Source: Candidatus Latescibacterota bacterium
GTDB taxonomy: Bacteria; Latescibacterota; UBA2968; SICM01
Assembly (NCBI GenBank): GCA_965217865.1
Contig: CBDCJO010000001.1
Location: 480,001 to 544,000, forward strand
DNA: 64,000 nucleotides
Reading direction: 5' to 3'
Position numbers and translations under genes: made by a program. The notes under the pieces are model-generated. The model worked only from the letters and a program-made list of their open reading frames with translations. It was not told the origin of the DNA and made no database searches. This document shows positions 41,387 to 57,795 of the stretch, in pieces (the first letter of the stretch is position 1; each line of letters begins with the position of its first letter).

Positions 41387-41982
41387 TGATGAATAAATAC
41401 GATTGCCTCAAGGCAATCGCCGCCAACCGAAGTGACGAGATCGTCGTGACCACCATGGGGGTTGCGCTTCCCTGGTCCGCTCTTTCCGATCACCCGCGGG
41501 ACTTCGCCTCCGTGGACAGTGGGATGGGACACGCTGCGGATTTCGGCCTGGGACTTGCACTGGCAAGACCGGATCTTAAGGTCCTCATACTCAACGGCGA
41601 TGGAAGCATGCTGATGAGTCTTGGGACCCTGGCGACCATCGTTGGCTCAGGTGCGCGTAACCTCATCCTCTTCGTCGTGGAAAACCGCACTTATGAGGTA
41701 ACTGGAAATCAACCCGTCCCCGGGGCAGGGGACATCTGTTTCGCACGAATGGCCGAAGCCTCGGGCTTCCCAAGGGTTTATGAATTTCGTGAACAGACTG
41801 ACCTTGAAAAGGGACTTCCGGAGGTATTGTCCGGCGAGGGACCTCTCTTCGTCACCCTCCGGGTGGAACCAGGCATGGAACCTCCCCCCATGCGTGAGAA
41901 GGAAAATCCCGCCCCCTACTTGAGGGATAGCGTGGCCGGATCGGCTCGCAGGCTTCGTACCGTCCTTGAACAGGGACCTTGA
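41386..41982 (+). CDS. comE: sulfopyruvate/phosphonopyruvate decarboxylase beta-subunit-like (TPP-binding domain)
   Basis: MGHA...LGLALARP, GDGSMLMSLG...N, TGNQP; TAATG overlap with the alpha gene. Confidence 0.75.
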   Translation: MMNKYDCLKAIAANRSDEIVVTTMGVALPWSALSDHPRDFASVDSGMGHAADFGLGLALARPDLKVLILNGDGSMLMSLGTLATIVGSGARNLILFVVENRTYEVTGNQPVPGAGDICFARMAEASGFPRVYEFREQTDLEKGLPEVLSGEGPLFVTLRVEPGMEPPPMREKENPAPYLRDSVAGSARRLRTVLEQGP

Positions 41983-42128
41983 AGATCGGCATATTCTTCC
42001 ACAATTTGTCCAAAAAGTTACGACGAAAAAGGGGCGATCCTTCGGATCGCCCCTTCGTTCAGGGGTTAAGATTGCGGCACAGACTTTGCTATTGTATGGA
42101 CCGATATTCCATAAAGGAGGAAACCTAT

Positions 42129-42755
42129 ATGCCTCAGACGGACGACTTACCCCCCCGACAAAAAGTTGCCATCCTGATGATCGCCCTAGGTCAGGATACG
42201 ACGGCCGAGATCTTGAAGTACCTGAACGATATCGAGATTGAAGGAATTACGCAGGCCATCGCAGAACTTAAGACGGTAACCTCACACCAAGAAGAACATG
42301 TCCTGCAGGAGTTCGAGCAGCTCCTGGCCACGGGAAGCTACATCGCCACGGGCGGGATCGAGTTTGCGAGAGGGGCCCTGGAGAGGGCGGTTGGCCCTCA
42401 CAGATCTCAAACCATCCTCGATCGCGTCAACAGCACAACCACCAACGGATTTTACCTCCTGCGCAACGTGCCGCCGAATCAGCTTGTCCCATTCATCTCC
42501 AAAGAGCACCCACAGACGATCGCCCTGATCCTTTCCCAGCTCGATCCCGGACAGGCCGCTGGGATTATCGGGATGCTCCCCGATGACATTCGCTCCGATG
42601 TGACCTACCGAATCGCCACGTTGGAACAGATCTCACCGCATGTCCTCAGGGACATCGAGCAAAGTCTGGCCCATGAACTCCAGGCGGTTTTGACCGGCCA
42701 AATCGAAGAGGCCGGCCAGATCTCCGTCTCCAAAACCCAAGAGGTTTTCATATAG
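42129..42755 (+). CDS. fliG: FliG homologue with in-frame loss of most of the C-terminal domain
   Basis: KVAILMIALG, GGIEFA, EHPQTIALILS; jumps from ...VLTGQI directly to the terminal EEAGQISV motif; 208 aa. Confidence 0.85.
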   Translation: MPQTDDLPPRQKVAILMIALGQDTTAEILKYLNDIEIEGITQAIAELKTVTSHQEEHVLQEFEQLLATGSYIATGGIEFARGALERAVGPHRSQTILDRVNSTTTNGFYLLRNVPPNQLVPFISKEHPQTIALILSQLDPGQAAGIIGMLPDDIRSDVTYRIATLEQISPHVLRDIEQSLAHELQAVLTGQIEEAGQISVSKTQEVFI

Positions 42756-42807: not shown

Positions 42808-43560
42808 CTATGGTCCACGGTTCACCCCTTCGGTGATCCCCTCCGCCTCCAACTCGTAGTCATCGTAGTAAGCCACGCTGTTCCCCTTGATCGTTTTGAA
42901 CAGGATCTTTGCGCGCGCGGCAGTGCTGTCCCGTGTCATCATCCAGATACCCGAAGATCCGGGTTCATAATCCCATTCTATCTTCAACGTTCGGATGGGA
43001 AACGGGGGATTCGTCATCTCCCCCACCACCTTCACAGGACCGTAATTCCACGCAGAAATCCAAAGGTGGCCTTTGATCCGACGTACTTTGTCCCTCGCGG
43101 GATCGATCTTAAGCTTATAAGTGATATGCCCCCTGACCACATCGGTTCCGATCAGTCCTACCGTGTAATCGTACTTCCCCAGGGGAAATCCCATAAGGTT
43201 TTTTAGCGGGAAAGCGTTGGATGGATGCCCGATGTTGGTCCATTCCACCTTCCGATCGACAAGGGATGGGGGTCGATAGATGACGACTGCCTTTTCTCTT
43301 CTCTTATCCCCCTTCGATTCCTGGACCACCAGCTGGACGACGCTCAAGCTCCGGACGAACGCTCGGGCCCGTTCCTGGTATCGGTTGACCTCTGCCACAA
43401 TCCGGTCGACTTCTTGGGCACCGGCCCCCGCGTACGCGAACAGGATGAGAAAGCCGATGAGCCAGGCATTGCATTTCGACCGGCGAACGCATGTCATGTT
43501 TTCTTTTATCGTCATCACAGCAATCGGTAATTGAGGCTGGAGGTAAAACTCCTGGTCCAC
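42808..43560 (-). CDS. exported hypothetical protein (possibly LolA/LolB-like fold)
   Basis: Signal peptide ...AYAGAGA-Q; YKLKIDP...KGHLWI....YGPVK pattern; true start probably near 43515. Confidence 0.7.
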   Translation of the reverse strand: MDQEFYLQPQLPIAVMTIKENMTCVRRSKCNAWLIGFLILFAYAGAGAQEVDRIVAEVNRYQERARAFVRSLSVVQLVVQESKGDKRREKAVVIYRPPSLVDRKVEWTNIGHPSNAFPLKNLMGFPLGKYDYTVGLIGTDVVRGHITYKLKIDPARDKVRRIKGHLWISAWNYGPVKVVGEMTNPPFPIRTLKIEWDYEPGSSGIWMMTRDSTAARAKILFKTIKGNSVAYYDDYELEAEGITEGVNRGP

Positions 43561-44696
43561 GGAAGCCCTTCGCTCTTGTCCACCTGAACACCGACCACGA
43601 AGTTCGTTTTGTTCTCGAGGAAGAAGCTGAATAAGGCGCCAAAAGAAGTGCCCACCTTGCTCTGGCCTGTCTGATTTCTTTCCGCACGAAGAATGTCCTG
43701 AATTGAAATGTCGATGCGGTTGCTCACCTCATAGACAAAATCGCTGATGAGGCCCGCAGTATACACCCGCCCGAAACGCCGGGTGAACGGACTGTTCAAC
43801 TCCAGGCGCTGATTGAATTGAATCCGCCAGCCCAGGGGCAACGAATAGCGGTAGTCCGCCGAGGCAGATGGATCCCCCCGTGGAATCCCCCTGTGTGAAG
43901 CCGTCGTCTGAAAACTAACCCCGAAACTGAATTCCTTTCCGTAGAACCGGTTATTGACCCGCTCCTGAAAGAGGACTTCGTTGATTCGAAGGATGCCACC
44001 CGCCCCAATCCCTTTGGGGGCCACACCCGACCCCACGATCACCCGCTCCATCTCCTCAAACCACCACTTCTTGTAGGTGGACCCGTATCGCTCCTTGAAC
44101 TCACGCTCCTTTTCAATGACGTGGCCCAGTTCGATCAAGTCTTCTTTCGGCAGGTGGTCCGAGATCGCATCCTCCCGGATCAGAAATGCCTCTACCCGAA
44201 CCGCCCGGGCAAGCGACGTGGCGTCGATGAATCTGCCGTTCCCGGCACCAACAGTAACCCGTGTAGAGGGTTGGTCGAAGGCCTTGTCGTAATCGAAGTT
44301 GACATCCGAGAACGCAAAGATCGACGTCCCCCACAGGATATATTTCTTGCCCCTCAAGTCCACGTCCGAGGCATACTGCGACGTATCCCTTGAAGAACTG
44401 ACATCCCGGTTGAGCGCCCCGGACCCGATGGCATCCAGCGAATAGCCGAAGGAAAGGCCTTCCCTGAATCGTTTGTAGGTGAATGCGAGGCTCCCGCTTC
44501 TTCCCTTCAGGTCCCCCCCCTCGGCCGCGTAGTTGAAGCTGAAGTCAGCGCGGAGGTTCTGGACAGTGGTCACCGGAACCGTATAGTCCTTGATGTCGGC
44601 ATTCTGAGCCGATGATTCGTGGGATAGAATCAGGACTGAGAAAATCCACGCAAATTGGCGAAGGCCCATCACGGCTCCGATGCGATCTGGTTTCAC
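43515..44696 (-). CDS. putative outer-membrane beta-barrel protein
   Basis: Signal peptide, alternating amphipathic strands, C-terminal SLNYRLL. Confidence 0.7.
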   Translation of the reverse strand: MKPDRIGAVMGLRQFAWIFSVLILSHESSAQNADIKDYTVPVTTVQNLRADFSFNYAAEGGDLKGRSGSLAFTYKRFREGLSFGYSLDAIGSGALNRDVSSSRDTSQYASDVDLRGKKYILWGTSIFAFSDVNFDYDKAFDQPSTRVTVGAGNGRFIDATSLARAVRVEAFLIREDAISDHLPKEDLIELGHVIEKEREFKERYGSTYKKWWFEEMERVIVGSGVAPKGIGAGGILRINEVLFQERVNNRFYGKEFSFGVSFQTTASHRGIPRGDPSASADYRYSLPLGWRIQFNQRLELNSPFTRRFGRVYTAGLISDFVYEVSNRIDISIQDILRAERNQTGQSKVGTSFGALFSFFLENKTNFVVGVQVDKSEGLPWTRSFTSSLNYRLL

Positions 44697-44753
44697 AGAA
44701 GTTTTTCGGTATCCTTTGGAGGGCGGAACAGGGGGGAACCCACGGGGGGGTTA

Positions 44754-45863
44754 TTATCTGATCTTGAGAGTCGCCAGTCCAATGAGCGCAAGGAGGCCGG
44801 ATACAATCCAGAAGCGGATGACCATCTTTGTCTCACCAATCCCGCGATGCAGGAAGGTATAATGGACGGGGGCTCTGTAGAAGATGCGTCGTCCGATCCA
44901 ATTGATTCCGAGCTTTTCCTGAATGAGCACGGAGAAAGCTTGCAGCACGAAGATGCCACCCACAATCAGAAAGAGCACCTCGGATTTGAGTAGGACGCCA
45001 AGGGTGCCCAACGTACCCCCTAAAGCTTGCGAACCGGTGTCCCCCATGATGATTTCTGCGGGATAAGCGTTATACCAGAGGAAACCGACCCCGGCCCCGA
45101 AGATGGCGGCACAGACGATGGCTATTTCCCCGCTCCCGTAGAGGTAAAAGAAGTGGAGGTAGCTTGAGTATTTTGTGTTTCCGATCACGTAAGCGAACAC
45201 GCCGTAGACCACGGCGGCGAACGATACCGGGACAATCGCCAAGCCGTCCAGACCATCGGCGAAATTGACCGAGTTGGCAATCGCCACGATGGTCAGGGTG
45301 ATAAACGGAAGATAGACCCAGTAAAGGTCAACCACAGGTGTCTTTACCATCGGAACAAAAAGTTTTGTAGCCAATTCCGGTGGGATCGGAGAGAAAGAAG
45401 CATAGAGGCAAACCGTTCCCAGGGCAAGGCCGAAACCGGATTGAGCCAGAAGCTTTGACCGTTGCGAAAGTCCTCGGTCGCTGTCCTGCCGCCTGCTCTT
45501 GAGATAATCGTCGGCTGCCCCGATCCCTCCAAACCACACGAGGGCCGAACACAACAGGGGAATGAATGGATTGGCCAAATCGCACCAGAGAAGGATACCG
45601 GAGAGGATTGACAAAATAATGACGGCCCCTCCCATCGTCGGTGTCCCACTTTTTCCCTCGTTGGATAGCTGGCCATAATCCCGGATGACATCCCGCATCC
45701 CGGATCGATATAGAAATTCCACGATACGGCGGCCCAAAATCATCGTCAGCAAAAATGCGGTCAAGGCGGCGGCGATCGCCCGGAATGTCAAATAGTCAGC
45801 CAGCCTCAGAAACGAAAGCTCCGACAAGGATTCACGCAATACATCAAAAAGGTAGAACAGCAA
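44754..45863 (-). CDS. mraY: phospho-N-acetylmuramoyl-pentapeptide transferase homologue (divergent)
   Basis: YLTFRA, K.GTPTMGG, ADDYLK, NSVNFADGLDGLA, MGDTGS; APVHYTF in place of AP.HHH. Confidence 0.88.
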   Translation of the reverse strand: MLFYLFDVLRESLSELSFLRLADYLTFRAIAAALTAFLLTMILGRRIVEFLYRSGMRDVIRDYGQLSNEGKSGTPTMGGAVIILSILSGILLWCDLANPFIPLLCSALVWFGGIGAADDYLKSRRQDSDRGLSQRSKLLAQSGFGLALGTVCLYASFSPIPPELATKLFVPMVKTPVVDLYWVYLPFITLTIVAIANSVNFADGLDGLAIVPVSFAAVVYGVFAYVIGNTKYSSYLHFFYLYGSGEIAIVCAAIFGAGVGFLWYNAYPAEIIMGDTGSQALGGTLGTLGVLLKSEVLFLIVGGIFVLQAFSVLIQEKLGINWIGRRIFYRAPVHYTFLHRGIGETKMVIRFWIVSGLLALIGLATLKIR

Positions 45864-45869
45864 ATTCGA

Positions 45870-46805
45870 TCACCTCTGTTTGAGCCGAATCAGATCTTGG
45901 GTCAAGGTTCTTAGGTTGCCTCGAAGCGGAAAATGAGGGCTGAAGCTCGGACACGGAATGAAAAGCAAGTCCAGCGATTTTTCAACCAATTCCGCATCTC
46001 GGATCACGTCCCTTATGATCAGTTCGTGCACGGTCTGGAGAGCCGCTTCCCGTACACGCCAGTTGCGATGGCCAAACAGGTCCAGGATGGGTCTCACCGA
46101 AACCGTCCCCCCGACGTTCCCGAGGGCCAATGCAGCCTCCATGACCACCTCAAAGGACCTGTCCTTAAGGCAGGGGAGGAGGAACCCCTCGATCTCAGGA
46201 TCCGCTACCACCTGACCGGCCAGCTTGCGGATTGTAGTGGCTGCTGAAGACCTCACCTCATAGTAGGGATCTTTCAGAGCTGTGATGAGACCCGATTTGA
46301 TCTCCGGACGGAATAAGCCGAGATTACCGATCGTCTGAACGATGTTTCTCCTGATAAAACCCACCTGACGGAAATCCCCTCCGAAAATCCGGCGGATCAG
46401 ACGGTCGGGGGTCCGGTCGCGCAACATATCCAGGAGAACGGGCGTCATCTCACGATAACCGATCAACCCGACCAGTTTAACCCCCACATTCCGCACTCGC
46501 CAATCTTCGTCTTCGAGATATTCTCTGATCCTGGATCGGACCAGATCGATCTCCATTCCATCCGCCAGAGGCAGGTTTTTTCTCTCCGTCACAAAGGAAA
46601 GGAGTTGGAACGGAGAGTAACGACAAAGGTCTGTTTCACTTTCATGGTTTGAAGAGGCCAATATCTCCTCTTGGTTGGTCGATTGCCCTCCCGGACCTTT
46701 TATCACACGGGCTTGTCCCAATCCAGAAACTCCGGGATCGCGATGGAACTCCGCGACAAGGAATTTGGGAGCACGAAGGGAATAAGCCCTCCGGGTTCCC
46801 AACAT
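45870..46805 (-). CDS. HEAT-repeat protein
   Basis: EDEDWRVRN, DPYYEVRSSAA, DRSFEVVMEAALALG, NWRVREAAL; N-terminus uncertain. Confidence 0.8.
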   Translation of the reverse strand: MLGTRRAYSLRAPKFLVAEFHRDPGVSGLGQARVIKGPGGQSTNQEEILASSNHESETDLCRYSPFQLLSFVTERKNLPLADGMEIDLVRSRIREYLEDEDWRVRNVGVKLVGLIGYREMTPVLLDMLRDRTPDRLIRRIFGGDFRQVGFIRRNIVQTIGNLGLFRPEIKSGLITALKDPYYEVRSSAATTIRKLAGQVVADPEIEGFLLPCLKDRSFEVVMEAALALGNVGGTVSVRPILDLFGHRNWRVREAALQTVHELIIRDVIRDAELVEKSLDLLFIPCPSFSPHFPLRGNLRTLTQDLIRLKQR

Positions 46806-47525
46806 TTAAAAAATCAGAATGGCCCGGATACCGGGATGGACCGTTTTGAATATCGTTTGAGCATGGTCTGGGAGAACACCAAAAGACACGCGGATTCCTG
46901 GATATACAGCCTCCCAATTCAAACCCGCAGTGACATGGTCCCTCATCCCTCGAAGGGTTGCGAGCACCCGCGCTGTCACGGGCTTATCATTTTCACTGGA
47001 CCGGACTGAATCGACAGGGATAACGCGAACGACCAGCTCGTGATCGAAGAAAAGGTTGTAAAAGAACGGCGTGGGGTTTTTCGTTTTAGGAGAGAAAAAT
47101 AGGAGCGTATCCGCGGAAGATCGGGCTTGGGGGATGATGGGTTGCGGCGGAAGCCCGAGATCCTCCTTCTTCCTAGCTGTATGGGGACTCGAGGTGTTAC
47201 GGGGAGAATCCGACCATGCCTTGATATCCCCCTCTACGGTGATGTCCAACAGATCATAGGCCTGTAAATCCACCCCGCGAATCTTGAATCGGAGTTTCCG
47301 GGATCTCAGATCGATGATGGCGTATGCCGAATTAAGCTCGGCCAAGGCCAATTCAAGGCGCAACGACCGGTTGTCGTGTTCCAGGATCGCCTTTTCATGC
47401 GAGAGGGCGATGAACGATCTGCGCAGGTGATCCATTCCCAAATCCGATGGGGGCAAACCGCCCGCCGCCGAAGTGGCGCTGATCAAGGTCACCACGACGA
47501 CCGGAATCCATCTCCGGGTCATCAC
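46806..47525 (-). CDS. exported YkuD-like protein lacking the catalytic His/Cys motif
   Basis: YAIIDLRSRKL...G..L..Y first strands and DHAQTIFKTVHPG..AILIF terminus resemble L,D-transpeptidases; no Cys in the protein. Confidence 0.6.
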   Translation of the reverse strand: MMTRRWIPVVVVTLISATSAAGGLPPSDLGMDHLRRSFIALSHEKAILEHDNRSLRLELALAELNSAYAIIDLRSRKLRFKIRGVDLQAYDLLDITVEGDIKAWSDSPRNTSSPHTARKKEDLGLPPQPIIPQARSSADTLLFFSPKTKNPTPFFYNLFFDHELVVRVIPVDSVRSSENDKPVTARVLATLRGMRDHVTAGLNWEAVYPGIRVSFGVLPDHAQTIFKTVHPGIRAILIF

Positions 47526-47544
47526 GCCTCACCTCTCCGAGGTC

Positions 47545-48582
47545 TCAGAAGATATAAACTTTGGTCCCCCTTTTGGAGGCGTTGAAAACGACTTTCAGAT
47601 CCTCGTCGCCAAGTCTAATGCAACCGTGGGTCACGTCCCTTCCCAAAAGGCGGGTAAATAGGGTGCCGTGGATTAGATAAGGGCCACCGATGTCCATCGC
47701 ATAATCGCCAAGCACACCCGCCTCGCGCCTCTTTCTCCAATCTCTCGGGATCGGTTCATTCTCTTCAATAAAGGCCCAATCCGGCTTGGTCCAGATCGGT
47801 TCCTCAATCTTGCGCCGAATCTTCCGGATACCGAGAGGCGTCCGGAAGATCCAAACCCTTCCGTCCGGACCGATCAGCGTGTCCCCCTTGCCGGTGGAAC
47901 AGGTGGCATTCAGAAGGGTTTCTCGATGCCCCCGGAGGAACAACCGGTTTGCGTTCGTATCAACGACGATGTATGGATCCTGAGGCACCAAGGCCTCGAT
48001 CTTGATCTGGAGGTTTCTTTTCTCTCGGAGTAAGCGGGAGACATCCCGCTTCAAATCCCGTTGCGCTACTGTGGACGGATCTGCAATTTCCCCGTGGGGT
48101 CCCACGATGTCCGGTGCCATGGCTTGAATCTTCAGCCTAAGTCTGAGATTTCTGCCGATCAAGGCAGCAATCTTCTGTTTGATCGTCCAGTTTTCAGCCA
48201 GCCGCTCTTCCGCAGTTTCGTCGGAGAGGAATTCGGCGATCCCATCCTCAACCCCGAAGCTTGAGGGTCGAACTTTATACAGGGAGGTATCGTCAGGTCT
48301 GGATATTGGATAGGCATCACGACCGGGTTGAACCACCATGGCCAGATCCCGGTTTGGCCGGTCTTTATAAAGATCATCTGATTCCCCTTCCCCGTTCCCC
48401 TTCTCAGGAATCGAGAGGAGCGCGAGGAAAATCCCCGGTATCGTGATCCATTTTGAAAATCCCGTCATGTGGTGACGCCCCATTTTGAGAAAACCTCCGT
48501 GCGGCAGACCTTCAGCTTCGCGGATTGCATCCGACGATCGTGACAGGGGTTCCCACCCGCACGTGACCGAAAAGGGTCTCAA
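47545..48582 (-). CDS. L,D-transpeptidase (YkuD family) with N-terminal coiled coil
   Basis: YIVVDT..NRL, STG, TPLG, YLIHGT...VTHGCIRL, GTKVYIF; true start probably near 48484. Confidence 0.92.
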   Translation of the reverse strand: MRPFSVTCGWEPLSRSSDAIREAEGLPHGGFLKMGRHHMTGFSKWITIPGIFLALLSIPEKGNGEGESDDLYKDRPNRDLAMVVQPGRDAYPISRPDDTSLYKVRPSSFGVEDGIAEFLSDETAEERLAENWTIKQKIAALIGRNLRLRLKIQAMAPDIVGPHGEIADPSTVAQRDLKRDVSRLLREKRNLQIKIEALVPQDPYIVVDTNANRLFLRGHRETLLNATCSTGKGDTLIGPDGRVWIFRTPLGIRKIRRKIEEPIWTKPDWAFIEENEPIPRDWRKRREAGVLGDYAMDIGGPYLIHGTLFTRLLGRDVTHGCIRLGDEDLKVVFNASKRGTKVYIF

Positions 48583-49597
48583 TGTCGATGTCGGTCAGGG
48601 CAACGCACCCTTCTGTCCAGTCCTTGCCGCGCCCCCCGCTGCCGTGAATCGTGATCGACCCCCCGATATCCGCACCCCGGGGGATCCTTCCCCTCTGCTT
48701 GAGCATTTTGAACCGACGCTTGTCCTCTTCGTTTGGGTAGTCCAACAACAATCCCCGATTATATTTTGCTTCCGCAATCTTTCGAACGATCTTGTACTTT
48801 CCCTCGGGGGTGGCGTGATCCCCCCGGTGGAGCTTCTTCCCCAGCCATCGCATGCCGATATCCACCTGGAAACGTTTCCGGAGCACCCCCCCATAGTACA
48901 GTTCGGCACGACGATTGACTTTGTCCACCACGACGGCGTGGGCGGAATGGAGACTTGACCACTTCAAGGTTTCATCGACCCATCTTCCCCACCGTTCTTG
49001 ATGTCTTGCGTAATCCCTGATTCGTAACTCGACTCCGGACCGCACTCGATCGAGCCCCGCAATCGTCCGGTCTAATAGGTCTTGAACGGCCTCATACTTT
49101 TCACCATTTAGAAGGTGCCCCGCTTCCTCAAGGGCAACCCGGGCCGCCCCAACCTCCCGGTTCCCGCCGCGATCCAGGGGAACCCTTCCCAAAATGGAAA
49201 GCGTACGATCGATGACGGCCTTTGTCTTCTCAAGCGTCCCAAACGCGACTTCCCGAGCGCGGGTTTTATTCTGGACGGCCGATACTCGAGCCTGAACGGC
49301 TCTGGATCCAGCCATCGACGCCAACCTTTTTGCCCGATCGTAGGTTCTGAACCAGATAAACCGGCGCATCTGGCGCGCGCTTTCGCGTTGGGCGCGCAAG
49401 AGGGTTCGCTCGGAAACCTCAAACGCCTCCGGAGAATAGTTCTCCGCATCGGCTTGTCGGGCGGCCTCCACCTTCACCTTTGCCGCATCCAATTCCCGAA
49501 CAGGCAATTCCGCACAGGCCCCCGCAACCAGCAGAAGGATGCAACTGGACGGGAAAATGATCTGTCTTCTACGAGATGACGCGATCAACCGATCCAC
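48512..49597 (-). CDS. lipoprotein: DUF4398-like helical domain + L,D-transpeptidase
   Basis: Lipobox VAGAC; GDHATPEG.Y, LDYPN..D, ITIHGSGG...WTEGCVAL, GTPVTIVG. Confidence 0.9.
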   Translation of the reverse strand: MDRLIASSRRRQIIFPSSCILLLVAGACAELPVRELDAAKVKVEAARQADAENYSPEAFEVSERTLLRAQRESARQMRRFIWFRTYDRAKRLASMAGSRAVQARVSAVQNKTRAREVAFGTLEKTKAVIDRTLSILGRVPLDRGGNREVGAARVALEEAGHLLNGEKYEAVQDLLDRTIAGLDRVRSGVELRIRDYARHQERWGRWVDETLKWSSLHSAHAVVVDKVNRRAELYYGGVLRKRFQVDIGMRWLGKKLHRGDHATPEGKYKIVRKIAEAKYNRGLLLDYPNEEDKRRFKMLKQRGRIPRGADIGGSITIHGSGGRGKDWTEGCVALTDIDIETLFGHVRVGTPVTIVGCNPRS

Positions 49598-49720
49598 ATC
49601 GATGCCGTTTCAAAAGTGAAAGCGCGTGAAGCGTTTCCTAACCGAGGAAGAGGGGCTTCGAATTCCGTACCGGCCAACCGTTCGGGCATCGTACTTTCCT
49701 CGGGATCTCCGGATACGAGT

Positions 49721-50356
49721 TTAGCGTTTCCGGGGGCTCCACCACGGGTTTTTCATCTGGTACTTTTCGATAGCTTCATCCACCTGACTCTTTACGTTGT
49801 CGGCAGTTGATTTGATGGCACTGGCCTTGTCTCTGGCCCCAAAATAATCTTCTCCCGAAATGGCCGAACTCACGCCAGCCACCTGCGCCTCCACGCCTGC
49901 CAGATCGGACTCGAGTTGCTCGACATCAGCTCTCGTCCCCTTCCCGCGCGGAGCAACACCAAGAGATTCTTTCGCAGCTTCAATAGAGGCTGTGGCATCG
50001 TTCAGTGCCGCCTCGGCCTCGGCCTTGGCCTTGGCCTTGGCCTTGTTTTCCTGTGCAAGTTTGGCCACGCCATCGGCCTTCGACTTCGTATCGGTTGCAT
50101 CCTGCTTTACCCGGTCATAACTCCGGAACAAGGGAAACTTGCCCTCCTGGGCTCCCAGCTCCGCATCGATGCTCTTTATCGATCCTTCCAGGGCACTGAA
50201 CTCGGCAGTCGCATACTTGGGCGCTTCGGCCTTACGGGCGTTTTCCACTGCAGCCTTTGCAGCATCGACCTCAGACGTAGGGGGTGCTGCGCAACTTGAA
50301 ACCAACCCGGCGACCGCAAAACTTAGAACAAGAAGGGACATTTGTTTCATGGCCAA
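49721..50356 (-). CDS. Ala/Lys-rich coiled-coil lipoprotein (DUF4398-like)
   Basis: Lipobox LVSSC, PP..EVDAAKAAVENARKAEA.KYA; KAKAKAKA run encoded by a GGCCTT hexamer repeat. Confidence 0.85.
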   Translation of the reverse strand: MAMKQMSLLVLSFAVAGLVSSCAAPPTSEVDAAKAAVENARKAEAPKYATAEFSALEGSIKSIDAELGAQEGKFPLFRSYDRVKQDATDTKSKADGVAKLAQENKAKAKAKAEAEAALNDATASIEAAKESLGVAPRGKGTRADVEQLESDLAGVEAQVAGVSSAISGEDYFGARDKASAIKSTADNVKSQVDEAIEKYQMKNPWWSPRKR

Positions 50357-50582: not shown

Positions 50583-51386
50583 TCATCTCCGTTTCACGGC
50601 CTTGAGCCTTTGCCTGGCCAGGTCCGCTTCGTCGGATTCCGGGAACTGTTTGATCAGGTTTCGGAGTTGTCTAATTCCCTTGGTTCGATGGTTTAACGCG
50701 AGACGTGCGTATCCAAGCTTTAACATCGCCGCGGGAACCTTATCCCCGTCGGGATAGTCCGTGATCACCCTCTGAAATGCTTTGATGGCCTTCGAAAAGT
50801 TCTTCTGGGCGTAGTGGCACTCTCCCAACCAATAACCAGCGTTATCAGAAAGATCGCTCTTTGGAAAATTTTCCAAAAGCTGCGAGAACTCGGAGATCGC
50901 CAGGGAATAATTCCCTGATTTCATGTCCTCAGAGGCCAGGTCATAAAGACCCCTGACATCCGATACAAACTCAGGTGAGGGGGTGCCGGCGAAGGTGTCC
51001 ACCCGGGAGGCCCGGGACTGAGATCCCCTCGAAGGCGTTGCCTGCCTGCTCCCGCCGTAGAGCCGCACGGATTCCAAACCCTTGGCCAGGTCCGCAAGGC
51101 GGCGGGCGGCCTCATCGAGTTTGGCCTGAACCTGCCCTAACCTCTGTTTGACATCCCCCTCGTCCGTTGAAAGCTCTGCCCACCTGCGCTTGCCTTCTTC
51201 CGCCTGGGCCTTCATCAAGCTATCCAGAGATCCGACTTGCAGGGATAGGGATCTGAGTTCTCCGCGAACGATCCCCATATCGGTCTGAACCGTCTTGACC
51301 ATCTCCTCAGTGGCACAGGCAACCGTTCCTGCCGCCACGGCCAGAAAAATCAGACGGGTGATCGGCCTGAGCGAAGTCAGGTGCAT
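50583..51386 (-). CDS. cpoB: Tol-Pal system protein CpoB/YbgF
   Basis: Lipobox, coiled coil, TPR (NAGYWLGECHY, YPDGDKVPAAMLKLG); directly after pal. Confidence 0.92.
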   Translation of the reverse strand: MHLTSLRPITRLIFLAVAAGTVACATEEMVKTVQTDMGIVRGELRSLSLQVGSLDSLMKAQAEEGKRRWAELSTDEGDVKQRLGQVQAKLDEAARRLADLAKGLESVRLYGGSRQATPSRGSQSRASRVDTFAGTPSPEFVSDVRGLYDLASEDMKSGNYSLAISEFSQLLENFPKSDLSDNAGYWLGECHYAQKNFSKAIKAFQRVITDYPDGDKVPAAMLKLGYARLALNHRTKGIRQLRNLIKQFPESDEADLARQRLKAVKRR

Positions 51387-51396
51387 AGGCTCCCCC

Positions 51397-52035
51397 TTAA
51401 GGGGCCATGGGTTCGGTGACTCTCGTCTCGGTACGCCTGTTCTTGGACCAGGCCATCTCGTCGTGACCGGGGTCCACAGGGCGCTCTTTTCCGTAGCTGA
51501 TCGTCCCCAGCCTTCCGGCGTCGATCCCAGCCTTCACAAGGAATTTCTGGTGGCTATCCGCCCGCCTCTGGCCAAGCGCCAGGTTATACTCGATCGTTCC
51601 ACGCTCGTCACAGTGTCCCTCGATCGTGACCTGGAACTCCGGGTTATCGTTCAATTTCTTCACGTGTTCGGCAAGCGTGGCTTTTTGGTCGTCTCGGATA
51701 TTGTGTCTATCGTAGTCGAAGTGGACTTCGGAAAAGGTCCTTCGTGCAATCTCTTTCGCCCTGGCATCTGCCTCGGCCTTGGCCTTTGCTTCGGCCTTGG
51801 CCTTTGCTTCGGCCTCGGCCCTTGCCCGGGCTTCTTCCTCGGCTTTGATTCGAGCAAGCGAATCGGCTGTCGCCTTTCGGGCCATTGCTTCAGCCTCCGC
51901 TTTGGCCCTCGCGTCGGCTTCCTCCTGCGCGCGAATGGCGGACTGATCCACACATCCGATGGCCAGGAGCGCCACGACTGCGGTCGAACAGGCCAGGTTC
52001 CGTTTGATGATTATCCTCATACCATCGAATTTCAT
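51397..52035 (-). CDS. pal: peptidoglycan-associated lipoprotein with an Ala/Glu/Lys-rich linker
   Basis: LAIGC lipobox; [38 protein letters not shown]; AGGAGG SD before ATG 52035. Confidence 0.95.
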
Positions 52036-52124
52036 GATTGCCTCCTTAACTGGAGTTGTGGATTGCTCACGCGAAAATGCCGACTCTCTTGAAGGATAAC
52101 CGGCCCCCGAATGAGCGCCCGGGT

Positions 52125-53537
52125 TCATTCCTGCTCCATCATTAACGCCGGAGACCAAGCCGGAGAAATCCCCGGGGTCAACCGTCGAACATTGGTGCCA
52201 TCCCAATTCATGACATAGATCTCCTCCCTCCCGTTCCGATCCGACCAGAAGACGATCTGTAACCCGTCCGGCGACCAGGACGGATCTTCATTGCTTCCCC
52301 CGGCGGTTAGCCTGAAAGGGGTTCCTCCTTCCACTTCCGTCACATAGACATCGAAACCTTCAAAACCCCGTCGGACGAAAGCGAGCTTCTTCCCGTCCGG
52401 CGACCACCGAGGAGACCCTTCATAGGCGTCCGGTTCCCAGGTCAACCTGCCAAGGTTCGATCCATCCCTGTCCATCATATAAATCTGCGGAATTCCCGAA
52501 CGATCAGAGGTGAAAGCAATCCTATCCCCCCCGGGGGACCACGCCGGTTCTGTGTCTGTTTCGGGATGATCCGTCAACCGGCGAAGCCTCCATCCCGATG
52601 TCGTGATCGTATAAAGATCGATGTTGTCCCCATCCTTGACCGAGAAAAGGATCTGACGCCCATCGGGCGACCACGCAGGAGAGATATTCAATACTGAAGA
52701 GGTACGAATCGGGGTCGTGAAACCCGTTAAGACATCGGCGATGAACAGCTCCCACCGGTCATGCTGGAGCGAAGAATACGCGATCTGTTTTCCATCGGGC
52801 GACCACTCGGGAGATAGGTTTACCGTACCGTCGTCGGTTACCTGACGAGCCCCGTGGCCATCGTAACCCATCACGAAGATCTCTTTGTCGCCGTTTCGCT
52901 TCGAAACGAATGCGATCTGCGACAAAGCCACGCCCCGTTGACCCAGCAGGCTGTATATGATATCGTCGTTTAATCGGTGCGCAACAGACCGCGCACGGTC
53001 CAGATCCACGACATAGGACTTTGCGATCAATAGTCTCCCGTCGGGGAGCCGGTAAAGCGTCGCGAAAAGCTCTGTATGGTCGAGCGTTCGGTGAACCTCA
53101 CCCCGGACCAGACCCCGGGCGCCCGCGGCGGACCAGATATCGAGCAAAGATCCGTGTCCCGTGCTGTCTACGATAGCGGAATCCGCAAGAACGTCGAACC
53201 TGCCGGAGTATCTGAGATCGTCCCTCAGTACGTTGAAGATGACATCCGCGACCTGAACCACCGTTGCATCCGTCGTGTCCCGAACAAATGTGGTGAGGCC
53301 AAGGGGGGTCTTCCGGATCCCCCCTTTTACACCGAGGTAAACCTCCGGATAAAACCGAACGGTATCCGACCGGACATCGGTCGGGGTGGGCTGGGCAGAC
53401 GCCTCTCCCACCGCTAGGATGATGGGAGAGAGAACGAGACAATATACGATCTGTTTAAAACGACGAGATCCGGAGACCAAGGCGTCTTCAATTTTCAAAG
53501 TCGAAATGTACCCCAAGTTGGTCACTCTGATACCCAT
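52125..53537 (-). CDS. tolB: Tol-Pal beta-propeller protein TolB
   Basis: TolB N-domain (DL..SGRF, AH...DDI) plus PD40 repeats; between tolA and pal; true start probably near 53480. Confidence 0.92.
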
Positions 53538-54162
53538 CGGGAAGAGGCGCCAGCGGCCCTGCCCAGGCTACAGCGTTGAAAGCCGCACGGTCGAACACCA
53601 GCACCCCAGATCCTGCTTCCACAAGAGATTCCGTGATCATCCCGTCCTTCCTGATCCTGAAAAAGACAGTCGCCTTCAGGATCCCTTGCTTTCCCACGAT
53701 CATGGGCTCTTCCCACCGCGACAAGATTCGAGACTTGACGTCTTTAATGTAATCGGGAAACGGGAAAGGCTCCCCCTCCAGCCTCATCCCCCCTCCACTT
53801 CCCCCAGGTCCCTGCCCGCCTCTACTCGGGCTCGCACCTTCTTTCCCGGGTCGCTGGCTCCAACGGCGGGCGGGCTTCTTCGTTCCCTTCGGGGCCGACG
53901 GTTCGTTGGACGGCGCCCGTTTTACCTTCAGGCCGGTTCTTACCCTTGGCCTCACCACTTCCGTTTGGGGGATGTTCAACGACTTCTCGCCTTCCCCGTG
54001 CGCCGCTCCGAGCCCACCCAGTCCCTGTGGGAAACCGACAAGCTCCACACCATACACCCTGACCGGTGGGCCGCTCTGCCTATTCCCCCTCTCAGACCCC
54101 CATACGACCCCGGCAACAGCGATAACGTGGATGATCATGGAGATCAAGACTGCGCTCTTCAT
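53488..54162 (-). CDS. tolA: TolA/TonB-like energy transducer
   Basis: TM S...H motif (ISMIIH), low-complexity linker, C-terminal TonB-like domain (SG...FDRAA..AV, PLP). Confidence 0.8.
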   Translation of the reverse strand: MKSAVLISMIIHVIAVAGVVWGSERGNRQSGPPVRVYGVELVGFPQGLGGLGAAHGEGEKSLNIPQTEVVRPRVRTGLKVKRAPSNEPSAPKGTKKPARRWSQRPGKEGASPSRGGQGPGGSGGGMRLEGEPFPFPDYIKDVKSRILSRWEEPMIVGKQGILKATVFFRIRKDGMITESLVEAGSGVLVFDRAAFNAVAWAGPLAPLPDGYQSDQLGVHFDFEN

Positions 54163-54587
54163 GGCCGCCCAACCCCCTCGACGATCTCTTCGACCAGCCC
54201 CAACCGGGTGACACCCGATGCCTTGATCCTCCCGACGATCTCCACCACCTTCCCGTAGGGAACCTCTTCATCCGCGCGGAGGAAAACAGGACGATCCCCG
54301 ATCCGGGCCCGTGCCGCCTCGAAGCGTTTTTGAAAATTGGCGAACGATACGCGCTCCCTATCGATCTGCACCTTCAGGTCGCGGGTGATCGTGACAACCA
54401 CGCCTTCCTGAACCTCCGCCTGACCGATCGTCGACTTCGGAAGGTTCACCCCAAGCCATTCCATCATCGCCGGGACAGTCACCATGAAAATGATCAGGAG
54501 AACCAGCATGACGTCCACGAACGGCGTCACATTGATATCCGAGAGGACCGACCTCCGGGACCCCGACCTCAGACGCTGAACGTTCAC
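54159..54587 (-). CDS. tolR: TolR/ExbD
   Basis: INVTPFVDVMLVLLIIFMVT, LRAD..VPYG. Confidence 0.92.
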   Translation of the reverse strand: MNVQRLRSGSRRSVLSDINVTPFVDVMLVLLIIFMVTVPAMMEWLGVNLPKSTIGQAEVQEGVVVTITRDLKVQIDRERVSFANFQKRFEAARARIGDRPVFLRADEEVPYGKVVEIVGRIKASGVTRLGLVEEIVEGVGRP

Positions 54588-55285
54588 GTTCTTCCCCGGA
54601 CCGGTACGGTGGCCACGAACTCCACGGCGAACTGCTCCACCTCGCGCTGGATGGCTTCAACCCGTCCGAGAAAATAGTTATACGCGATCACCGCCGGAAC
54701 CGCGGCCGCGAGGCCGGCAGCCGTCGCGATCAGCGCTTCCGCGATTCCAGGAGCCACGACCGCAAGATTCGCCGAACCCCGTAGGCCGATGTTCAAGAAA
54801 GAGGTCATGATCCCCCACACCGTTCCGAATAACCCGATGAAAGGGCTGATGTTTCCAACTGTGGCCAGGAAGGGCAGATGCCTTTCCAGGGATACCATTC
54901 GCCCGGTAGCGGCGACATCCAGGGTCCTCCGAAGGTCCTCCCGATCTCCGGACCATCCTCCGCCCCCCTCTCCGTAGACCAACTCGTAGCCCGTTCGAAA
55001 GATTCCGCATAACGGGGACCGATTCAAAATCCGGCTCATCTTGTATATATCGGAAACTTGGGCCCTGGATCGAAAAAGCCGCAACAACCTCGACGACTCG
55101 TGCTGAATTCGCCTTAGATCGACCAGTTTTCGACCGATGATCCCCCAGGAGACCACCGAGAAGAAAAATAAAACAAGCAAAACCCCTTTGACAACCGGTC
55201 CCGCTTCCCCGACCAGCCCAATTGCGCCCTGGGACAACCCGGTTCCAAGCATAGGCAAAAAGGTGAAGTCGCGTTTAGGCGACAA
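54584..55285 (-). CDS. tolQ: TolQ/ExbB proton channel
   Basis: LATVG..SPFIGLFGTVWGIM, VAPGIAEALIATAAGL. Confidence 0.93.
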   Translation of the reverse strand: MSPKRDFTFLPMLGTGLSQGAIGLVGEAGPVVKGVLLVLFFFSVVSWGIIGRKLVDLRRIQHESSRLLRLFRSRAQVSDIYKMSRILNRSPLCGIFRTGYELVYGEGGGGWSGDREDLRRTLDVAATGRMVSLERHLPFLATVGNISPFIGLFGTVWGIMTSFLNIGLRGSANLAVVAPGIAEALIATAAGLAAAVPAVIAYNYFLGRVEAIQREVEQFAVEFVATVPVRGRT

Positions 55286-55343
55286 AAGCTGGGGTCAAAG
55301 GCCGTAATCGGCACGGCTGCTGATGGCGAACGACATAAAGGGT

Positions 55344-57795
55344 TCAGAACTGAAATTTGGATTCCGATTTCGGGTTTTGGCGGGCCGCCCCTGGCTTCCC
55401 CGCAAACCTGTCCCGGAAATGCCCTTGGTCGGTCCGTTGACCGTCCCCCCCAGGAGATGACCGCCATCCGTCCCCAGCGATCGGGGACCCGGGGAAACGC
55501 TCCGTACCCGCCCTAAACGCCACAGGTTCCCCCCCGCGCTCGTCCGACAAGATTTCGCCCCGGGTGCTCAGATAGTTAAAGGCGATTCCTTCCGGGACCT
55601 CAAATTCCCGAGAGGGTTTGTCGAAAAGGGCCCCCTTCATAAAATCCAACCAGATAGGGGCGGCCACATATCCCCCGGTAAACTTCTCTACCCATGGGTC
55701 TGCGATCATCGTAGCCCACCCACGTGCCGGCCACGAGTTCCGGGGTATAGCCGACGAACCAGACATCTGTAAGGCCGTTTGTCCCGGTCTTCCCCGCGGT
55801 TGGCCGACCGAGTTCCTTGACCCTTCTGGCCGTACCCCTTTCCACTACCGCTTGGAGCATGTTGGTCATGATGTAAGCGGTCTGGGGGGAGATGGCGTAT
55901 TCTTCATCCGGTGTTTCGGCTTGCCCGTTCGACGAACCGGTCTCCCTTCCCCTTTCGTGCCATTTGCCAGGACGGTTGACAAATCGGTTGTCTTCGAGCA
56001 CCCGCCCCTTTCGATCCCGGATCATCGTGATGAAAACGGGCTCCACTTTCCGGCCGGCGGCGGCAAAAACCGTGTAGGCCTTCGTCAACTCCAGTAAGGA
56101 GATCCCCGAAGAACCCAGGGCAATCGAGGGGTTCGGTCCTAAGGGGGTCGTGATTCCAAGCCTTCTTGCCCGCTCGACAACAGCCTGAGGCCCAAGACGA
56201 TCCGTCAACCGAACCGATACGGAGTTCAGAGATTTTGCCAAGGCGCTCCTGAGGGTCTGCGGCCCCATGAACTTTCCCTTGAAGTTCCTCGGGGTCCAAT
56301 CCTTTATCGTTATCGGAGCATCTACAACCACCGTCATTTGGGTATAGTCGAGGGAATCCATGGCAACCGAATAGATGATCGGCTTAAAGGCCGAACCCGG
56401 TTGTCTTCGGGCTTGGATGGCCCGGTCGAATTGGCTCCTGCTGTAGTCATACCCTCCGACCAGCGAGCGCACGTATCCGTTCGAAGGGTCGATGGCCACC
56501 AGGGCTCCCTGAATCAGCGGATCCTGATCCAGGGAGACGCGATAGATGCCTCCTTCGCGCCCCACGACTCGGACGTCAACAATATCACCGGGCCCCAGGC
56601 CCCTCCGAAGGCTGCGCTCTGTGGCCACCCCTTCGTTCCCGAGCGTCCGACTTGCCCATTTGGATTCATCCTCATCCAGGATGGCCCTTAAAGACCCGAT
56701 ACGGAGCCGAACCCGGTTTCCAACCTTTGATACCACCGCCTGATATTTCTCCCCCTCATCGAGCTTGATACTCTGGCCTCGGGAGGAACCGCCGGCTTTG
56801 GCGCTCCGAATCTCCTCGGCTTGCTTCTGCAGGAACGATTTCACCTGCCGCGGACTCAGAAATCCGATTCTCCCTCGGAATCCCATGTCCTGATCGAGAC
56901 CTCGCAAGCCCCCCTGGATGGCTTGATTTGCCGCCATCTGAATCTGCAGGTCCAAACCTGTGTAGATCTTTAGGCCATCCCGGTAGATCGACTCGGATCC
57001 ATAATTCGATCTGACGTTTTTTCTGACTTGTTCGACAAAATAAGAAGCGACCTTGTGATTTCGATCCTCCCAGGGATCGATCTGAATATCCTGTTTAGCA
57101 GCCCGTTTGGCTTGACGAAGGGTTATAAACCCCTCCTTGAACATCCTCTGGAGGGTGTAGACCTGCCTTTGTTTGGCTCCCCGGAAATTGGTAATCGGGG
57201 AATAATGGGACGGGGCCTTCGGCAAACCCGCCAGCATAGCAGCCTCGGCCAGTCCCAACTCGTTGACGTGCCGTCCGAAATAGTTTTGAGCGGCGGCCTC
57301 AACGCCGTATGCCCCGTGTCCAAAGTAGATCTGGTTGAGATAGAGGTGGAGGATCTGTCCTTTGTTCAATTCCCGTTCGATCCGATAGGCCAGGATCGCC
57401 TCTCGGATCTTTCGGCTGTAGGATATCTCACGGTCCAGAAAAAATTCCCGGGCGATCTGCTGGGTTATGGTGCTCCCCCCTTGGGGACGCTTGCGTGGCT
57501 CGAGATTCTTCAGGAAGGCCTTTGCAATACGCAGAAAATCCACGCCGCTGTGTTCAAAGAATCGCCCATCCTCCGCCGCAACGAAAGCCTTTTTAACCAC
57601 CCTCGGAATGGAGTCCAGGGGAACGACCACTCGCCTTTGAATATAAAATTCTCCGATTACCGTTCCGTCCGCAGCATAAACCTGGCTCAATACACTGGGA
57701 TCATAGTCTTGGATGGCCGTTAGATCCGCGGGGAGCTGCCGATTATAATAGCGGTAAGTCCCCCGCTGCCTGATTTTCGGAAAAAAATACGGCAA
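55344..57795 (-). pseudogene. mrcA: penicillin-binding protein 1A (class A PBP), frameshifted near the C-terminus and lacking an obvious N-terminal anchor
   Basis: TG motifs AEDGRFFEH, GGSTITQQ, RKIRE; TP motifs GSAFK, SLN, GKTGT; conserved TGG..AAPIW continues in another frame (ORF 55344-55766) from about 55690. Confidence 0.85.

Follow-up and report, generated by a model that had tools for sequence, protein, structure and literature searches.

In a 64,000-nucleotide window of the Candidatus Latescibacterota bacterium genome (GCA_965217865.1, contig CBDCJO010000001.1, positions 480,001 to 544,000), eight open reading frames (ORFs) lie on the minus strand at 42808..50356, downstream of pbp1a-tolQRAB-pal-cpoB. 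These genes very probably represent two units with separate histories joined side by side, namely a four-gene cassette (unit A) for a lipoprotein, two YkuD-domain enzymes and a catalytically dead enzyme paralogue, and a two-gene unit (unit B) for a HEAT-repeat protein and MraY; two genes for exported proteins complete the string. Unit A stands about an even chance of encoding an Lpp-independent covalent tether joining the outer membrane to peptidoglycan, provided with enzymes for attachment and for release and built on a lipoprotein unrelated to Lpp. The activities, interactions and localization put forward for the products of both units are predictions drawn from the gene content, homology, conservation, copy number and linkage reported below. 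The source genome comprises 6.4 Mb in two contigs and is rated 96% complete and 9% contaminated; families are coded f1 (that of the source genome) through f14.

Linkage of the two gene units

The cassette was followed through 41 loci, all from metagenome-assembled genomes, obtained by a scan with the transpeptidase. The lipoprotein, the DpaA-like enzyme, the transpeptidase and the dead paralogue were complete and in the same order in 31 of them, and the titles of the 41 loci name Aminicenantes, Acidobacteria, Zixibacteria, Ignavibacteria, Calditrichaeota, Eisenbacteria, Deltaproteobacteria, Fibrobacteraceae, Handelsmanbacteria, and Elusimicrobia. Ten loci were incomplete: seven were truncated upstream by a contig end, one lay at a contig end with no fourth gene detected, in one the hydrolase was replaced by a second lipoprotein-like gene, and in one there were only two transpeptidase-like genes. 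Within the class of the source genome, the lipoprotein profile matched 123 of 124 other genomes (some of these, a few in number, being hydrolase N-domains or fragments), and that of the dead paralogue 103 of 104. In 104 of 106 genomes, no more than 5 kb separated the dead paralogue from the lipoprotein gene. The core of lipoprotein, transpeptidase, and dead paralogue was present in 9 of 11 class loci.

The remaining genes do not follow this distribution. Only two of the 41 loci, both of f1, have the cassette flanked by HEAT, mraY, the last two genes and Tol-Pal, and none of the 39 cassette loci outside f1, several of them on short contigs, carries any of these. The HEAT gene lay within 10 kb of the best lipoprotein-profile match in three of 72 genomes; the two were 197 kb to 5.4 Mb apart in 27 genomes and on separate contigs in 42. 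Adjacency of units A and B was seen only in f1, where the eight-gene order is conserved in three genomes of two genera, and the string is regarded here as a lineage-specific gathering of envelope genes. The first-pass annotation had read it as a dedicated module working with Tol-Pal and had staked this reading on co-occurrence in other genomes; the counts above do not bear it out, Tol-Pal flanking the cassette only in f1. The clean separation of the units is weakened by genus g15, in four genomes of which a DpaA-like gene lies 4–6 kb downstream of murG-HEAT-mraY (past recG in one annotated locus), a partial link between units A and B outside f1.

At the source locus, the ORFs, coordinates and gaps of the eight co-oriented, mostly tight genes were verified, the successive intergenic gaps being 232, 123, 28, 19, 0, 6, 57, and −1 nt (Table 1). 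The position directly behind Tol-Pal given in the first-pass annotation holds here and does not extend to the two closest genomes, in which an SLT gene and a DegP-like gene separate the lipoprotein gene from cpoB. In one f1 genome (L013:2033-4824 and L013:12875-13777), an SLT lytic transglycosylase and a DegP-like protease are encoded between these two genes, and an S11 D,D-carboxypeptidase after the last gene. Scans for promoters (8 against 6.7 expected) and terminators (20 against 20.0 expected) were at chance level and lent no support to co-transcription. Four RNA runs with small word shares gave short contigs covering Tol-Pal, the lipoprotein gene and parts of the LD-transpeptidase (LDT)-family and HEAT genes, with mraY and the last two genes left uncovered; these contigs are uninformative on strand, level, and co-transcription.

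Table 1. Features of the eight-gene region and its upstream neighbors in the window
Feature	Coordinates	Strand	Remarks
pbp1a, tolQ, tolR, tolA, tolB, pal, cpoB	50583..57795	−	Ordinary upstream genes; tied to the cassette only in f1
Rod-shaped helical lipoprotein; Cys22, DUF4398-like N-domain, AP-x-G-K loop (Lys139)	49721..50356	−	Unit A; candidate peptidoglycan-attached tether
DpaA/LD-carboxypeptidase-type YkuD enzyme with lipoprotein-homologous N-domain; Lys255, His318, Cys331, Ala at Cys+2	48512..49597	−	Unit A; 361 aa; lost in most of the class
LD-transpeptidase-type YkuD enzyme after a long helix; His305, Cys321, Arg323 (numbering of the 345-aa frame)	47545..48483	−	Unit A; likely start ATG 48483
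Catalytically dead transpeptidase paralogue; signal peptide, long helix, LDT fold, no Cys	46806..47525	−	Unit A
HEAT-repeat protein standing alone; homologue of the C-terminal domain in relatives' MurG-HEAT fusions	45870..46805	−	Unit B
MraY; catalytic aspartates conserved, HHH reads HYT	44754..45863	−	Unit B; the only copy in the genome
Uncharacterized exported protein, possible β-barrel	43515..44696	−	Paralogue elsewhere in the genome
Exported protein similar to LolA/MucB-RseB/TP0789-like families	42808..43560	−	Likely start near 43515

The lipoprotein and the YkuD enzymes of the cassette

The lipoprotein was modeled as all-helical with a predicted local distance difference test score of 94 and a 54-residue central helix. 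Its ∼190 residues are thus predicted to form helical bundles linked by one long helix, DUF4398-like and distinct from the coiled coil of Lpp, so that the first-pass description of a coiled-coil lipoprotein stands as to a helical lipoprotein and not as to the coiled coil. At 1.5 Å per residue the central helix would span ∼80 Å, and the AP-x-G-K loop, which follows it, would by helix order lie at the end distal to the lipidated cysteine. Residues 2–104 best fitted the DUF4398 protein PA2901 (PDB 4FM3) with Z 11.3 and a root-mean-square deviation of 2.5 over 93 aligned residues, a match that is not decisive, since a Z below 13 between helical bundles can arise from a shared arrangement alone. DUF4398 matches on the homologues fell just below cut-off, and a Foldseek search with the model returned nothing at E ≤ 0.001.

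The family comprises 1510 representatives at E ≤ 1e-10. In 150 divergent homologues, ranked by a profile that itself contains Lys139, the Lys139 column holds lysine in 148 and arginine in one, and four other lysine-rich columns show arginine 9 to 25 times, further such columns being less conserved. The lipobox cysteine column is conserved in 149 of the 150 and a lipobox-like pattern in 142. AP-x-x-K was seen in none of 36 copies of the homologous domain that forms the N-terminus of the cassette hydrolase.

YkuD domains were detected in two ORFs of the cassette (48512-49597 and 47545-48582), and these are the sole YkuD matches of the genome. The first had been annotated as an LDT with a lipoprotein-like N-domain; the homology of that domain to the lipoprotein is upheld (HHalign 99.6%), and the enzyme type is revised, since the protein is predicted by motif to belong to the hydrolase group of DpaA and LD-carboxypeptidases, its closest solved relatives being Bd1075, DpaA, Pgp2, and Csd6. 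Alignment to 8IKR placed Ala333 at Cys+2 and Lys255 at the equivalent of DpaA Lys83, and both are present in 34 of 34 family members. Of the cleft residues of DpaA, the Tyr109 equivalent is present and the Gln86 and Met133 equivalents differ; the roles of these three residues and of the tryptophan in the D-Ala pocket of the carboxypeptidases are described in the available text of PMC10653827. The segment around His-2, parsed in 32 of the 34 rows, reads IEIHG in 30, IEVHG in one and ITIHG in one; Pgp2 and Csd6 read IWIHG/IWVHG. The second enzyme, correctly taken for a second LDT, is by its motif predicted to be of transpeptidase type: His305 and Cys321 are found in 52 of 52 rows and Arg323 at Cys+2 in 51, and it is closest to transpeptidase structures. 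Arginine versus alanine at Cys+2 is the published division between transpeptidases and DpaA, as far as the consulted parts of both sources go (bioRxiv 10.1101/2021.02.21.432140; PMC10653827).

The fourth gene, which the first-pass annotation rightly described as Cys-less and LDT-like, is paralogous to the transpeptidase (HHalign 97.7%, E 2e-12), and its top Foldseek rows were all LD-transpeptidases (best E 4.7e-4, with low TM-scores). The catalytic histidine and cysteine are missing from it, and a cysteine occurred anywhere in the last 60 residues in 2 of 47 homologue rows. In an elusimicrobial locus (L072:10434-11168), two transpeptidase-like genes stand in tandem; the HxC site of the second is degenerate, and this gene might represent an intermediate toward the dead paralogue. 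Lpp (PF04728) was not found in any of five genomes including the source, the E. coli control being positive. MurE carries the DNPR motif, which we take to indicate a wall of the meso-diaminopimelic acid (mDAP) type.

A rather unlikely, though serious, alternative is that unit A encodes a remodeling complex that attaches no protein, forming 3-3 cross-links and trimming or cleaving stems, with the lipoprotein and the dead paralogue serving as non-covalent activator and scaffold in the manner of the Lpo proteins. The transpeptidase profile also fits LdtD/LdtE-type models and generic YkuD structures, the hydrolase ties between the carboxypeptidase Bd1075 and DpaA (40.2 versus 40.1 bits), and the only two YkuD enzymes of the genome may have to cover general remodeling. 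However, such a complex leaves unexplained why the lysine is not exchanged for arginine and why, of the domain copies, the enzyme-fused one alone lacks it, and the hydrolase is without the D-Ala-pocket tryptophan of LD-carboxypeptidases described in the part of PMC10653827 available.

It is improbable, in turn, that a covalent tether is formed at a lysine of the C-terminus, the mode of Lpp and OutB, or on another substrate protein, with the AP-x-G-K lysine in a different role. A lysine is found within the last five residues in 100 of the 150 homologues, and, among 34 lipoproteins whose loci have the hydrolase or the lipoprotein-like stand-in, within the last three in 27. Yet in the three-gene cassettes a lysine falls among the final three residues in just 1 of 11, and the transpeptidase and the loop lysine are conserved there. 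The lipoproteins of the three-gene cassettes without a DpaA-like gene (L082-L092) carry a tail of PWY-x2-(M/I/L) type instead of a lysine-rich one; the window protein has PWW and then RKR.

Several observations also weigh against a tether through Lys139 with dedicated release. The ranking profile inflates the conservation of this residue, and an invariant lysine could bind peptidoglycan or a partner non-covalently. Lysine is the C-terminal residue in 35 of the 150 homologues and the window lipoprotein ends RKR, so an Lpp-style C-terminal lysine is not general. The His-2 residue of the hydrolase (glutamate in the family, threonine here) matches neither DpaA nor the LD-carboxypeptidases. Finally, none of the 11 cassette loci of f2–f4 has the DpaA-like gene; release is therefore not obligatory, and the core consists of lipoprotein, transpeptidase, and dead paralogue.

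If unit A is a covalent tether, the lipidated rod would hang from the outer membrane, and the Arg-type LD-transpeptidase would take a tetrapeptide stem as donor and join its mDAP to the ε-amine of the distal-loop residue Lys139 (AP-x-G-K). The dead paralogue may pair with the transpeptidase through the matching N-terminal helices and help in substrate selection, and the DpaA-like enzyme, with its lysine-less copy of the lipoprotein domain, would cut the mDAP-Lys link. The idea of an outer-membrane tether proposed in the first-pass annotation survives for the first four genes, with the lipoprotein as likely substrate, and not for the putative barrel, which does not travel with the LDT genes.

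The HEAT protein and the sole MraY

The presence of HEAT repeats and of an MraY outside the division and cell wall (dcw) cluster was confirmed. In the genome search, a single match exceeded the TIGR00445 cut-off of 192.05, at 279.9 bits, the others scoring 92.6, 48.5, and 48.2; three f1 genomes hold four GT4 genes each, one of them MraY-like. The dcw cluster of the source genome (mraZ-mraW-ftsI-murE-murF-ftsW-murG-murC-murB-ftsQ-ftsA-ftsZ) contains neither mraY nor murD, and not one of the 14 class dcw clusters examined contained mraY. Elsewhere in the genome there are a murD-like gene and ddl, and the lack of a D-Ala-D-Ala ligase, which had been considered, was rejected on this ground. A 560-bp gap between murF and ftsW (L005:14100-14661), the usual place of mraY and murD, holds by eye an apparent short receiver-domain fragment. 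The alternative lipid-linked precursor of the first-pass annotation presupposed a second mraY; the genome has one, outside a dcw cluster that lacks it, and the same was found in two relatives.

MraY has the three catalytic aspartates; D117, D118, and D265 are called critical in the accessible text of PMC6606608. The HHH motif reads HYT in the three f1 genomes (3/3) and only there. In an alignment of 55 MraY rows, in which three genomes appear twice, the first histidine is conserved throughout. The first histidine of the HHH motif is essential in MraY. At the second position 11 of the 55 rows have aspartate, among them the divergent MraY of f3/f4, and at the third four have glutamine or asparagine, giving HDH, HHQ, and HHN. 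As the second and third histidines vary in other MraYs of the phylum, HYT is compatible with a housekeeping role, and this MraY is most likely the housekeeping copy that makes ordinary lipid I. The changed position is presumably that of H325 in Aquifex MraY, judging in part from the alignment to E. coli MraY. Aquifex H325 touches four of five nucleoside inhibitor classes, according to the available part of PMC6606608.

Other MraYs of the class differ in several respects. A lack of MraY in f3/f4 was suspected and rejected, as a divergent MraY with DD, DGVDG, MGD, and HDH motifs is present. This stand-alone form (L073-L077, L140-L142, e.g., L076:8337-9398 on the plus strand) scores 117–125 bits on TIGR00445, under the cut-off, and is ∼30% identical to the MraY of f1/f2; mraY thus seems to have been replaced within the class. 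Most f3 genomes examined also have a divergent murG outside dcw. The MraY of f2 (L014:9442-10548 and other f2 loci) has a KTYGG-type sequence in place of the GTPTMGG signature, with HHH conserved in most rows. Among the best 80 metagenome relatives of this MraY, one carries the LDT cassette (a repeat of an f1 genome) and six carry HEAT; most of the 80 are canonical dcw loci.

HEAT stands directly before mraY in 20 of 20 loci of f1 and f2. In f2, it forms the C-terminal domain of a ∼670-aa MurG fusion, which is the sole murG there; one TIGR01133 match per genome was found in 41 genomes, and the four f2 dcw clusters examined contain no murG. The HEAT domain was detected in 77 of 153 genomes of the phylum (all of f1, 69/69 of f2, 1/1 of f13, and 4/4 of f14) and in none of 31 f3 or 22 f4 genomes. 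Outside f1 it lies within a frame of at least 559 aa in 72 of 74 genomes, one such frame being MurG plus HEAT by Pfam. In three of four loci of f13/f14, which belong to other classes, murJ directly precedes murG-HEAT-mraY (L124:11293-12945, L125:6289-7935, L126:6248-8113). The murG-HEAT-mraY cassette supplies the only mraY in f2, f13, and f14, sole-murG status being established for f2. In the source genome, HEAT is alone and the only murG sits in dcw. A tree of 26 MurG sequences placed seven dcw copies, including that of the source, on one branch (99/97) and 15 fused copies on another, more weakly supported (90/75); the tree is unrooted and the order of events is accordingly deduced. Judging from these sequences, f1 likely retained murG in dcw, and the MurG portion of its fusion was lost. 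Thirteen database clusters of stand-alone HEAT proteins (58–93% identity, 240–302 aa, most with intact-looking starts) show that the separate form is real, and the HEAT protein freed from MurG may act as a cytoplasmic scaffold for MraY and MurG.

With only one mraY in the genome and no co-occurrence of the eight genes outside f1, the ideas of an alternative precursor and of a Tol-Pal module fall. That all eight genes form one module coupling such a precursor to LDT tethering and Tol-Pal is therefore largely refuted and highly improbable: tight spacing, the order shared by three genomes of two genera, HYT confined to these three, and the g15 arrangement speak for it, but mraY is single, the units lie far apart in 27 of the 30 genomes in which they share a contig, the cassette loci outside f1 lack the other genes, and the second and third histidines vary elsewhere in the phylum.

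In the loci seen, neither of the last two genes is part of a conserved unit outside f1. The possible β-barrel protein has no Pfam or NCBIfam match; its homologues occur in 66 of the 153 phylum genomes at positions unrelated to either unit, as in G004, where the homologue lies at 2,655 kb, the lipoprotein at 18 kb, and mraY at 3,400 kb. Its atlas neighbors are hypothetical proteins, one set carrying DUF481 on 26% of its members. Beyond the eight genes, a FliG-like ORF at 41979-42755 on the plus strand of the window has N-terminal and middle domains and no match to the C-terminal domain, and a similar ORF is present at L007:12041-13114. A rodA-like SEDS gene (G000:C2:4948906-4950063) is matched in two pieces, as in five f2 genomes, which may reflect an insertion rather than a break.

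Comparison with known systems

The E. coli system of Lpp, LdtA/B/C, and DpaA (LdtF/YafK) shares with unit A an N-terminally lipidated helical protein of similar calculated span, the pairing of Arg-type with Ala-type (DpaA-like) YkuD enzymes, and the predicted mDAP-type wall. In contrast to Lpp, the unit A lipoprotein has no relation to PF04728, its ∼190 residues are arranged in bundles rather than in a short trimeric coiled coil, and the candidate acceptor is an internal loop lysine rather than a C-terminal one. The genes of unit A are moreover clustered, with a dead LDT paralogue included and the hydrolase carrying its own fused copy of the lipoprotein domain. For attachment via an internal lysine, Lys21 of Coxiella LimB offers a precedent (PMC12729407, available text). 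LimB and the barrel tethers of Coxiella and Brucella, as described there, have in common with the mode proposed for unit A an LDT-dependent tethering in bacteria without Lpp; the putative barrel of the window is not linked to LDT genes outside f1. None of the known attachments listed in the accessible part of PMC12729407 matches the unit A cassette.

The cassette hydrolase shares with the LD-carboxypeptidases Csd6, Pgp2, and Bd1075 the K-x3-GD-x2-TPEG and YPN motifs and the alanine at Cys+2, but its family has glutamate (threonine here) for tryptophan at His-2 and an added N-terminal lipoprotein domain. PA2901 corresponds to the N-terminal half of the lipoprotein, which adds a second bundle with the conserved loop, and offers no function. 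As with the canonical dcw MraY and MurG, MraY here exceeds the TIGR00445 cut-off, has three catalytic aspartates and is single-copy; it differs in lying outside dcw, in its coupling to a HEAT gene (MurG-fused in relatives) and in HYT for HHH. The word HEAT is absent from the main text of a survey of natural Mur chimeras, as far as that text was available (PMC10214165). Literature searches, which left subscription journals for the most part and supplements uncovered, returned no description of unit A or of the MurG-HEAT/MraY unit.

Taken together, it is possible, and put forward tentatively, that unit A is an independently evolved, operon-encoded counterpart of Braun's lipoprotein across little-studied diderm phyla, in which a DUF4398-type rod would be attached to mDAP at an internal lysine by an enzyme/pseudoenzyme LD-transpeptidase heterodimer and released by a DpaA-like enzyme with a decoy copy of its substrate, accompanied in f1 by a freed HEAT protein scaffolding a sole MraY, the altered loop E of which could weaken the action of nucleoside antibiotics. 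That HEAT persists without its MurG suggests that it works with MraY in lipid I/II synthesis. Lpp is present in ∼3% of genomes, and DpaA-like enzymes are common in Lpp-less diderms, including Acidobacteria and Bacteroidetes, with substrates unknown (bioRxiv 10.1101/2021.02.21.432140, in the part available). The cassette provides a candidate substrate, residue, attaching enzyme, and releasing enzyme, which makes this question testable in E. coli, and a conserved partner that is itself a dead LD-transpeptidase would be something new for the LDT family.

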